DNA from: a virus
Lineage: Duplodnaviria > Heunggongvirae > Uroviricota > Caudoviricetes
Direction: 5' to 3' (one strand)
DNA length: 44,950 nt
Virus record (IMG/VR): IMGVR_UViG_2541047795_000004
The notes beneath the pieces were generated by a model. That model saw only the letters and a program-made list of their open reading frames with translations. It was not told the origin of the DNA and did not search any database. Below are positions 17,628 through 18,560 of the stretch, one piece after another (position 1 is the stretch's first letter; the number at the start of each line of letters is the position of its first letter). The translations under genes were made by a program, and so were the position numbers.

Positions 17628-17703
17628 GCCGACTTAGCTCAGTAGGTAGAGCAACTGACTTGTAATCAGTAGGTCACCAGTTCGATTCCGGTAGTCGGCA
17701 CCA
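17628..17703 (+). tRNA. tRNA, anticodon TGT (Thr) by manual folding
   Basis: Folded by hand: 7-bp acceptor stem, D stem GCTC/GAGC, anticodon stem ACTGA/TCAGT with loop CTTGTAA, T-loop TTCGATT, 3' CCA. Confidence 0.75.
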
Positions 17704-17706
17704 TAT

Positions 17707-17781
17707 GCGGGTATCGTATAATGGCTATTACCTCAGCCTTCCAAGCTGATGATGCGGGTTTGATTCCCGCTACCCGCTCCA
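17707..17781 (+). tRNA. tRNA, anticodon TCC (Gly) by manual folding
   Basis: Folded by hand: 7-bp acceptor stem, anticodon stem TCAGC/GCTGA with loop CTTCCAA, T stem GCGGG/CCCGC, 3' CCA; 3 nt after the first tRNA. Confidence 0.75.
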
Positions 17782-18147
17782 GCATTTGAAACAAGCCTTA
17801 TTGTATTACGGCACTGGCGTATTTTTTTATTACGTGGGAGCAGGTTGTTTTGAAAAAGCATTCTGTTCTCTGGCTATGATTTGAGGCCGGGTGTAGCCTC
17901 AGTGCTGATTTTTTTACGGCAGCAGAATGGTGCATTATCGGTGGAGATTTTGTATTTCCTGGCAGGGTCGGTGGTGCATCATTCTGGTGTTGTAAATCGC
18001 ACCACAGAGGCGCTCCTCAGTGCGAGGGTGGTTTAAAGAGTCGGTTTAGCGGGAAACCACAGTATCCATACAGCACGGAATACTTCGGGAGGCACCCGAC
18101 GCCTCGGTTTAATAACAATTAAAAAATTCATCCCTTGCATTGACCAA

Positions 18148-18172
18148 CCGCCATATCTGGCGGTTTTTTTTA
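18148..18172 (+). terminator. Intrinsic terminator in the ORF-free interval upstream of the lysis genes
   Basis: Palindrome CCGCCA-TATC-TGGCGG followed by T8. Confidence 0.5.
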
Positions 18173-18560
18173 TTCCTTTCTCAGGACAAAAAAAGACACG
18201 AGCATCCAGGAATACTCGTGGGACAACGTCCTTTAGATAGCAATTTGCGAGAGGGTGAAAAGTAGCGCGGTCGTCGGATTAAGACCGCGGGACAAAGTCC
18301 ATGAAGAATAATAAGTATTGGCCCCCTTCTGGGGACATGTTCATACTACTAAGCTTCAGAAGTGGTTTAAATCATCAAATTAACCTTAATTTTCGATAAG
18401 TCTTATTTCATTTCTTTGCGCCACATCTGGCGCGCATCAAATAACGCCACGCAAAGGGCATCTGCGGATGCCGGTGCTTTTGACGGGGTGTTTTTTACGG
18501 GCCGCTGGTGGCCATTTTTTGTTTCCATTACACAGCGCCCGCATCTGCGAGGTGGGGGTT

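Follow-up and report, generated by a model that had tools for sequence, protein, structure and literature searches.

The stretch analysed here (the window; 44,950 nucleotides, IMG/VR virus record IMGVR_UViG_2541047795_000004, Caudoviricetes) is a Rac-type lambdoid prophage of Escherichia coli, and the interval at positions 17782–18560, between its tRNA genes and its holin gene, is the late-operon 'moron' slot of that prophage. It lies between a Q gene with a putative late promoter and the holin gene, at a place where relatives carry cargo. In the reading that we favor, with a probability of about 0.62, this slot is without protein cargo and is laid out like the corresponding slot of phage 933W, with two tRNA genes followed by two candidate small-RNA genes that converge. 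Shiga-toxin phages have the same arrangement, and the region is in that respect an ordinary one; its RNAs are diverged (plus strand) or undescribed (minus strand).

A first-pass annotation of the window had described some 780 bp without an open reading frame (ORF) of 60 or more residues ahead of the holin. This is confirmed, the interval being 779 bp long up to the holin start at 18561, with longest internal ORFs of 53, 51, 45, 44 and 41 residues; an ORF of 102 residues at 18468–18776 is a mere upstream extension of the holin frame beyond the MKSM start at 18561. The suggestion that the slot looks empty is not borne out, as about 350 of the 779 bp are occupied by two conserved structured RNA genes with their terminators, whereas the alternative offered in the same annotation, that a non-coding RNA may be present, fits the two candidate small-RNA genes described below. 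Rfam at its gathering thresholds returns nothing but tRNAs in the interval, and both RNAs are missed by Rfam-based annotation.

A predicted plus-strand RNA of the STnc100/PasD class

With a relaxed threshold, the Rfam model STnc100 (RF02076) aligns end to end over 17979–18175 with a score of 19.9 bits and an E-value of 0.034, and the alignment includes the exact CGGGAGGCACCCG hairpin (P5). A covariance model, R1, was constructed from 40 canonical sequences of the class with the subtype found in the window excluded. In a search of the whole window with filters off, R1 scores the element at 18001–18111 with 30.7 bits (E 3e-7), comparable to the 29.2 bits that it gives to the validated RNAs PasD1 and PasD2. 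The window has the core of the broad class, namely P1, a P2 that keeps the conserved loop, and a CGGGAGGCACCCG hairpin that the 3' strand of P1 closes.

The predicted fold is maintained among 16 distinct sequences of the window subtype, in which 92% of cells are paired and 10 pairs change on both sides, as compared with 5.2 in shuffled alignments (0 of 500 reach 10) and at most 6 in slid controls. These changes are seen in P1, P2 and P4, and one P1 pair is C-G in 8 variants, U-A in 6 and U-G in 2, and is broken in none. The structured domain is separated by an A/U-rich linker of 35 nt from the terminator, for which the first-pass annotation had also claimed considerable strength and which consists of a stem at 18146–18165 with a T8 run. 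The similarity of several relatives ends at 18170–18175, so the stretch from the tRNA genes to this terminator moves as a single module. The subtype is found in 301 of 5426 complete E. coli genomes (about 5.5%), including 38 places on plasmids. We take 17979–18175 as a candidate gene for a diverged RNA of the STnc100/PasD class, with its expression predicted from these sequence features.

A riboswitch-like antiterminator pairing between P1 and the terminator was considered and rejected, as it comprises 4 bp at most and is not common to PasD. A comparison of the interval with the PasA, PasC, PasD1 and PasD2 loci of strain E2348/69 by blastn with word size 7 gave no similarity.

A candidate convergent RNA gene on the minus strand

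The hairpin at 18197–18220 begins the evidence for a second gene: it lies 18 nt past the plus-strand terminator, is followed by a U-run on the minus strand only, and shows compensatory changes in relatives. We compared 15 distinct sequences of 18186–18445 read on the minus strand. The −35 hexamer TTTAAA is invariant among them, and the −10 hexamer TAGTAT becomes the better TAATAT in a second group of alleles. The predicted RNA then comprises a first hairpin with four versions of its stem, the near-invariant CAAUACUUAUUAUUCUUCAU, two further hairpins, a 3'-proximal segment of 45 nt that exists as two unrelated alleles, and the terminator. Elsewhere the alleles differ by 20%, but CAAUACUUAUUAUUCUUCAU and the promoter-like site hardly vary among them. 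RNAalifold gives 30 pairs. Compensatory changes are seen in 8, and many of the pairs are G·U and would be C·A mismatches on the plus strand; the z-score of single-sequence folding is −3.6.

No Rfam family was matched by this RNA, and AsxR, AgvB and Esr41 were not detected at E-values up to 10 on either strand of 17250–18620; PasA and PasC showed no similarity to it by blastn with word size 7. It is present in 369 of 5426 complete E. coli genomes (about 7%), and both RNAs are found behind differing Q, methylase and holin genes. The region 18188–18371 is thus described here as a candidate minus-strand small-RNA gene without known homologue, with a transcript whose start is predicted from the promoter-like site (Table 1).

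The interval could instead encode small proteins below the cut-off of 60 residues, the candidates being 32 residues at 18301–18399 (plus strand), 41 residues at 18403–18528 (minus strand), and longer ORFs that are annotated in relatives. The 41-residue ORF is annotated by PGAP as WP_001298832.1 in THO-008, ORFs of 132, 103 and 105 residues are annotated in L136, L006 and phage 683R6, respectively, and the 32-residue ORF has its start within the most conserved 20 nt and several conservative substitutions. Nevertheless, the annotated ORFs keep neither position, strand nor length from one genome to the next, and in the window they are interrupted; indels of 5 and 6 nt fall within the 41-residue ORF and indels of 1 nt within the 32-residue ORF (L003, L004, L005), and both are frameshifted in relatives; no Shine-Dalgarno sequence precedes the latter; and neither ORF matches a PHROG family. 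We regard protein coding as very improbable. The 32-residue product has no membrane-spanning stretch, which makes a type I toxin unlikely, and a type I toxin-antitoxin pair made of this ORF and the antisense RNA was rejected because the ORF is not conserved and its product lacks a hydrophobic helix.

Cargo joint, palindromes and spacer

In relatives L004, L005, L140 and L141 a module of 677 bp with terB and a DUF3927 gene is located exactly between window positions 18440 and 18441. Similar short sequences flank this module and the window is a clean hybrid of both. A tblastn comparison of TerB and the DUF3927 protein with 17201–18800 gave no match, so the cargo is absent rather than decayed, and the proposal that the slot is eroded is not supported. 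That related phages bear cargo here is on the other hand correct, both for terB with DUF3927 and for the stx2AB genes of 933W, which are found between the tRNAs and STnc100 and occupy the place of the window's 200-bp spacer at 17782–17978. Other relatives differ elsewhere, L006 having 17996–18258 replaced and L011 having a TolA-like gene and others after 18171.

The two palindromes pointed out in the first-pass annotation are both present, as GCGCCACATCTGGCGC at 18418–18433 and GGCATCTGCGGATGCC at 18457–18472. In relatives the first carries the compensatory variants GCGTC/GACGC and GCGCT/AGCGC while the second is half deleted, with 6 nt missing, in 5 of 10 aligned relatives, so that the first alone looks selected. 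The first palindrome is also identical at 13 of 14 positions to the core of the terminator hairpin (18149–18162). Terminator-like sites are altogether more frequent in the region than expected, with 6 found against 1.6 in shuffled sequences. The terminator-like hairpin at 18500–18523 belongs to a block, 18440–18527, that recurs upstream of several unrelated holins, and its region is annotated 'terminator' in phage Ayreon. The spacer holds T-runs, partial copies of the downstream terminator (17814–17831) and a weak hairpin (17881–17902), and it moves together with the tRNA-Gly gene in L006 and L010.

The first-pass annotation had further allowed that the interval might align as ordinary conserved leader sequence in its relatives. 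The interval is indeed conserved, at least 80% of it being carried by 199 of 5426 complete E. coli genomes, but this conservation reflects the RNA genes and mosaic modules and not a plain leader.

Table 1. Features of the region between the Q-like gene and the holin gene (window coordinates).
Feature	Position	Strand	Basis
Q-like late antiterminator gene, DUF1133 type	16732–17274	+	Pfam, PHROG
Putative late promoter PR', leader of ~80 nt and terminator tR'; TTGATT 17271–17276, 17-nt spacer, TTCAAT 17294–17299; tR' stem 17354–17385	17271–17390	+	sequence pattern, relatives, 933W
Sigma-70-like promoter, candidate tRNA promoter; TTGCGA, 16 nt, TATCAT	17537–17564	+	consensus
tRNA-Thr(UGU)	17628–17703	+	ARAGORN, Rfam 73.8 bits
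tRNA-Gly(UCC)	17707–17781	+	ARAGORN, Rfam 62.9 bits
Spacer, site of stx2AB in 933W	17782–17978	+	position, comparison
Candidate diverged STnc100/PasD-class small RNA; structured domain 18001–18111; P1 18005–18012 with 18099–18106; CGGGAGGCACCCG hairpin 18086–18098, then A/U-rich linker and intrinsic terminator 18146–18172	17979–18175	+	Rfam sub-threshold, model R1, covariation
Candidate small-RNA gene; promoter-like TTTAAA (18371–18366), 17 nt, TAGTAT (18348–18343); predicted RNA of ~150 nt from ~18337 to 18188 with five hairpins, 20-nt conserved unpaired stretch CAAUACUUAUUAUUCUUCAU, terminator stem 18220–18197 and U-run	18188–18371	−	conserved promoter-like site, compensatory pairs, folding
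Conserved hairpin GCGCC-N6-GGCGC, adjoining the cargo joint on its left	18418–18433		compensatory variants
Cargo joint	18440–18441		677-bp terB + DUF3927 module here in relatives
Terminator-like hairpin GGCCGCTGGTGGCC + T6GTTT, 38 nt 5' of the holin start	18500–18523	+	
Holin gene, phage-21 type, MKSM dual start, first lysis gene	18561–18776	+	Pfam

Evidence against two functional RNA genes

Several observations weigh against the reading of the slot as a functional RNA pair. The STnc100 score of the plus-strand element is far under the gathering score of 47, and its R1 score is partly circular, since the training set was collected by an 18-nt motif that the window element shares, with an E-value that depends on a rough calibration. 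The relatives compared are 80–97% identical, so the counts of covarying pairs rest on few independent events. Folding of the plus-strand RNA as a single sequence fails to give the comparative fold, the minimum-energy structure pairing P2 with the linker, and covariation was relied on instead. The pseudoknot of canonical members, in which the segment after P2 pairs with the loop of P4, is missing from the window variant; here the complementary strand (AAACCAC) sits 5' of P4, and the result is a nested helix with 84% pairing. The promoters are all matches to a consensus, that of the minus strand at only 8 of 12 positions. Finally, the plus-strand RNA (P5 hairpin) and its terminator are decayed in L005, and the tRNA-Gly of the window is altered at the near-universal C56, which hints at relaxed selection in some lineages.

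These last two observations would also suit a neutral recombination scar, in which terminators, hairpins and joints, left over as cargo was repeatedly gained and lost, serve only as spacer and insulator between Q and the lysis genes, and the RNA genes are fossils. The mosaic blocks have sharp borders near 17996, 18175, 18258 and 18440, the spacer contains partial terminator copies, indels of 1–6 nt occur throughout, and half of the relatives have lost half of the second palindrome, all of which a scar would explain. It would not explain why compensatory changes preserve P1, P2, P4, both terminators and five hairpins of the minus strand, nor the near-invariance of the 20-nt unpaired stretch and the promoter-like site in otherwise diverged alleles, and the same layout of two RNAs in 933W is one in which the RNAs are expressed and validated. 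We consider a scar unlikely and retain the interpretation as a convergent pair of RNA genes.

The STnc100-class domain outside the interval

A search of IMG/VR with the CGGGAGGCACCCG hairpin (P5) motif identified at least 120 loci (L013–L132). They share a domain of 110–140 nt with a P1 helix (..GGUG/CACC..) that has covarying outer pairs, a covarying P2 stem with a conserved UNNGC loop, a variable middle part, and the invariant P5 hairpin, and a terminator is found within 120 nt of the domain in 64 of 110 class members. In canonical members (for example L014, L018 and L024), the 12 nt after P2 form an H-type pseudoknot with the loop of the P4 hairpin. This is supported by very different sequences that are nonetheless complementary, with 6.9 contiguous pairs on average where shuffled loops give 4.2. 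Some phages have two or three copies of the domain 219–484 nt apart, and L011 has three in one Q–S interval.

The window itself contains a canonical copy on the minus strand at 6260–6394, 30 nt upstream of the start of kilR (6230, minus strand). This copy scores 63.2 bits with the class model (E 8e-17) and 35.5 bits with Rfam STnc100, under threshold, and its P5 hairpin is the compensatory variant CCUGG/CCAGG. The same domain is found in the K-12 Rac prophage between kilS and kilR (L134, 1760–1894). This location suggests that an STnc100-class domain can act as a 5' leader, and the domain ahead of kilR provides a handle on the role of the class. Just upstream of it, at 6411–6466 on the minus strand, are a DicF-like RNA and a terminator; the RNA scores 39.1 bits with Rfam, under the gathering score of 48 (E 3e-7), and corresponds to the position annotated as the small RNA KilS in K-12. 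The order KilS–KilR, a DicF-like RNA followed by a cell-division inhibitor, parallels that of DicF and DicB in the Qin prophage.

It is accordingly necessary to consider that the plus-strand domain of the slot is a cis-acting leader, binding a ligand, a protein or polymerase and governing how the sequence downstream is terminated or translated, that was orphaned by the loss of its cargo. The kilR copy, the riboswitch-like conservation of the canonical copies (invariant loops and a covarying pseudoknot), the 46 of 110 instances that have no terminator within 120 nt, and the frequent location of copies ahead of esterase or holin genes, with one phage having three in one Q–S interval, are all in keeping with such a role. 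In the window, however, what comes next, 35 nt past the domain, is a strong terminator and then a convergent gene, with no ORF, and an alternative antiterminator pairing is not evident. Moreover, the class member PasD is stabilized by Hfq and has RIL-seq (sequencing of ligated, interacting RNAs) targets that are reached via a seed in its linker (PMC8550237; Zhu et al. 2026, bioRxiv 10.64898/2026.05.13.724894). An orphaned leader appears rather improbable to us. Equally doubtful is the more general proposal that the class domain is a pseudoknotted RNA, widespread in phages, which has a ligand or factor as binding partner and influences termination, translation or the stability of the transcript in cis; it would fit the two versions within the window (18001–18111 and the kilR leader at 6260–6394), the presence of the domain in more than 120 viral contigs, and its reuse in early and late operons. 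Were it true, the window variant, with a nested helix in place of the pseudoknot, would be a natural structural mutant.

tRNA genes

ARAGORN detects exactly two tRNA genes in the whole window. They are 3 nt apart, and ARAGORN and Rfam agree with the first-pass annotation on the anticodons UGU (Thr) and UCC (Gly). Its placement of the pair after Q also stands, given the Pfam and PHROG assignments of the upstream gene detailed below. The tRNA-Thr gene is identical to host thrU at 76 of 76 positions. The tRNA-Gly gene corresponds to host glyT with a compensatory U6-A66 acceptor pair that is present in every phage copy collected, and the C-to-T change at the C56 position of its T-loop is private to the window's lineage. 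Scattered private C-to-T changes are found in other phage copies of tRNA-Gly, and may mean relaxed constraint in prophage copies. Capture of the host operon was rejected as an origin of the pair, as only the tRNA bodies match thrU and glyT while the flanks and the tyrU spacer do not. In relatives the Thr–Gly pair is the 3' end of longer arrays in the order Ile/Met-CAU, Arg-UCU or Lys-UUU, Thr, Gly.

In 49 ORFs of the prophage, the codons read by the two tRNAs are used at 14.6 (ACA) and 15.1 (GGA) per 1000, roughly double the averages of about 7 and 8 in E. coli K-12. This enrichment is consistent with codon supplementation by the tRNA pair, although it does not prove it. Two further cases concern the arrays of other phages: the 'tRNA-Arg' of SerU-LTIIb (L003, 1122–1197) has the body of the phage tRNA-Thr with its anticodon altered from UGU to UCU by a single base, and L010 has a tRNA-Lys(UUU) at 3268–3344 where L011 has tRNA-Arg(UCU). 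From their sequences both look like anticodon switching inside phage tRNA arrays.

Late promoter, leader and prophage setting

The protein encoded upstream of the slot matches Pfam DUF1133 with 357 bits and, weakly, Phage_antitermQ (27.1 bits), as well as PHROG 753, 'anti-termination protein Q-like' (E 1e-79). Comparison with PDB sequences gave nothing significant, the match to Q21 having an E-value of 0.27 over 27 residues. The block immediately after the Q stop codon, from TTGATT to the terminator, is common to L004 and L137, which differ in their downstream content. Over 28 nt, its terminator (17354–17385) shares 82% identity with the terminator that is annotated first after pR' in the 933W record, in which pR' likewise overlaps the end of Q. 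This block is probably the late promoter and its terminator.

The promoter-like site at 17537–17564 has 9 of 12 consensus matches and is identical in L137, and the 933W record has 'pT; putative tRNA promoter' at the equivalent place; the site may thus serve as the tRNA promoter. Another promoter-like match, at 17695–17722, was disregarded as it falls within the tRNA genes. Between the putative late terminator and the promoter-like site lies an AT-rich inverted repeat (17434–17514) with 21-nt arms that are 95% complementary and separated by 39 nt. A long hairpin at 17572–17624 (GGTTCTGAGGGG ... CCCCTGAAGAACC) is directly 5' of tRNA-Thr and has no T-run behind it; perhaps it is an element for processing of the tRNA precursor.

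On the other side of the slot, the holin matches Pfam Phage_holin_2_1 with 118.8 bits, is named essD in relatives, and is followed by a lysozyme gene. The potassium transporter gene trkG is present as cargo at 19854–21329, directly 3' of the spanin genes, as in K-12 Rac; the prophage that hosts it here is apparently intact, with full lysis and structural modules. About a dozen complete genomes, Ecol_316 and THO-008 among them, match 17280–18560 at 100% identity, and the induced phage vB_EcoS-683R6 matches it at 94.6%. Two RNA antitoxins are detected above the Rfam thresholds, RalA at 1557–1735 (225 bits) and sok at 15058–15232 (99 bits), the latter adjoined in relatives by a gene of the Hok/Gef family, so that the prophage combines two type I systems, RalA and hok/sok.

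Proposed mechanism

The genes, the structures with their covariation, the synteny and the cargo joints are observed in the sequences; for transcripts, their ends and their targets, the following is a prediction from the arrangement of the DNA. Behind the Q-like gene there would be the late promoter, whose short leader stops at a terminator (~17271–17390); the AT-rich stretch with the sigma-70-like promoter (17537–17564) then lies ahead of the tRNAs reading ACA and GGA. Some 200 bp past the tRNAs come the convergent small-RNA genes, with the plus-strand RNA predicted to end at 18146–18172 and the minus-strand RNA 18 nt away, then the conserved hairpin that marks the terB/DUF3927 joint, and finally the terminator-like hairpin just before the holin gene. 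In a lysogen, the tRNAs and both small RNAs would be made from ordinary promoters, and three or four plus-strand terminators would shield the lysis genes from that transcription. After induction, polymerase modified by Q would start from the late promoter and pass all of these terminators into the holin, endolysin and spanin genes. The analogy with PasD, AsxR and AgvB suggests that both small RNAs may pair with transcripts of the host or the phage in an Hfq-dependent way, and the minus-strand RNA would be fully antisense to the leader of the late mRNA.

Comparison with known systems

The tRNA pair resembles the ileZ-argN-argO cluster of 933W in lying between the late-promoter terminator and the cargo and in having a putative promoter of its own, and it resembles the tRNA clusters of Stx and other lambdoid phages in decoding codons that the host seldom uses and in which the phage is enriched. 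It differs from the 933W cluster in its isotypes, Thr(UGU) and Gly(UCC), and its Thr gene reproduces that of the host exactly, unlike the diverged phage tRNAs of the lambdoid clusters.

The plus-strand RNA is closest to STnc100, PasD1 and PasD2. PasD1 and PasD2 were described in enteropathogenic E. coli (EPEC) E2348/69 (Pearl Mizrahi et al. 2021, PMC8550237), and PasD2 of EPEC has been related to STnc100 (Zhu, Shabalina and Storz 2026 preprint, bioRxiv 10.64898/2026.05.13.724894). All share P1, P2 with a GCG-containing loop, the CGGGAGGCACCCG hairpin, an A/U-rich linker, an intrinsic terminator and a position downstream of Q. The window RNA has GAGGCG/CGCCUC in P1 in contrast to GGUG/CACC in canonical STnc100/PasD, is devoid of the AAU junction, and has the partner strand of P3 placed 5' of P4, giving a nested helix where canonical members form a pseudoknot. 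Its Rfam STnc100 score of 19.9 bits compares with 41.4 bits for PasD2 and 207.7 bits for the 933W copy. Like the minus-strand RNA, PasA is a small RNA of the minus strand situated between cargo and a holin gene, and terB genes often occur close to PasA as well as to PasC. However, neither is similar to it in sequence by blastn, and PasA is a processed RNA of 84 nt with a seed that overlaps its terminator.

Convergent pairs of small RNAs have been reported at the PR' moron sites of eight Sakai prophages, AsxR or AgvB being one member (Tree et al. 2014, PMC4104026). The 933W record has the order Q, pR', terminators, putative tRNA promoter, three tRNAs, terminator, stx2AB, esterase, S, and Rfam locates in it STnc100 on the plus strand, 100 nt after stxB (207.7 bits), abutted by AsxR on the minus strand (88.1 bits). 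The STnc100/EcOnc27 (plus) and AsxR (minus) pair of Sp5 and 933W thus has the same place as the pair in the window, preceded by Q, PR' and the tRNAs and followed by the lysis genes, with the cargo slot between the tRNAs and the small RNAs and with terminators that abut there and are 18 nt apart here. By position and orientation the minus-strand RNA would correspond to AsxR/AgvB. It is not a homologue of either, as the Rfam models RF02703 and RF02702, whose families have a conserved 3' region of about 42 nt, gave no match at E-values up to 10. It is predicted to be about 150 nt long as compared with the 51–60 nt of AsxR/AgvB, in which a variable 5' end mimics a target of a core small RNA, and the plus-strand partner, unlike the 933W copy, is under the Rfam threshold for STnc100. 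The slot of 933W contains stx2AB while that of the window contains no protein cargo.

To the known pairs the window adds a diverged STnc100/PasD subtype and an undescribed minus-strand partner with two alleles that share an invariant single-stranded stretch of 20 nt. The apparently empty Q-to-holin interval of a common non-toxigenic E. coli prophage keeps the tRNA and small-RNA scaffold that flanks stx2. As this scaffold is the same in the non-toxigenic prophage and in Stx phages, the scaffold, and not the toxin, is the conserved feature of the slot.

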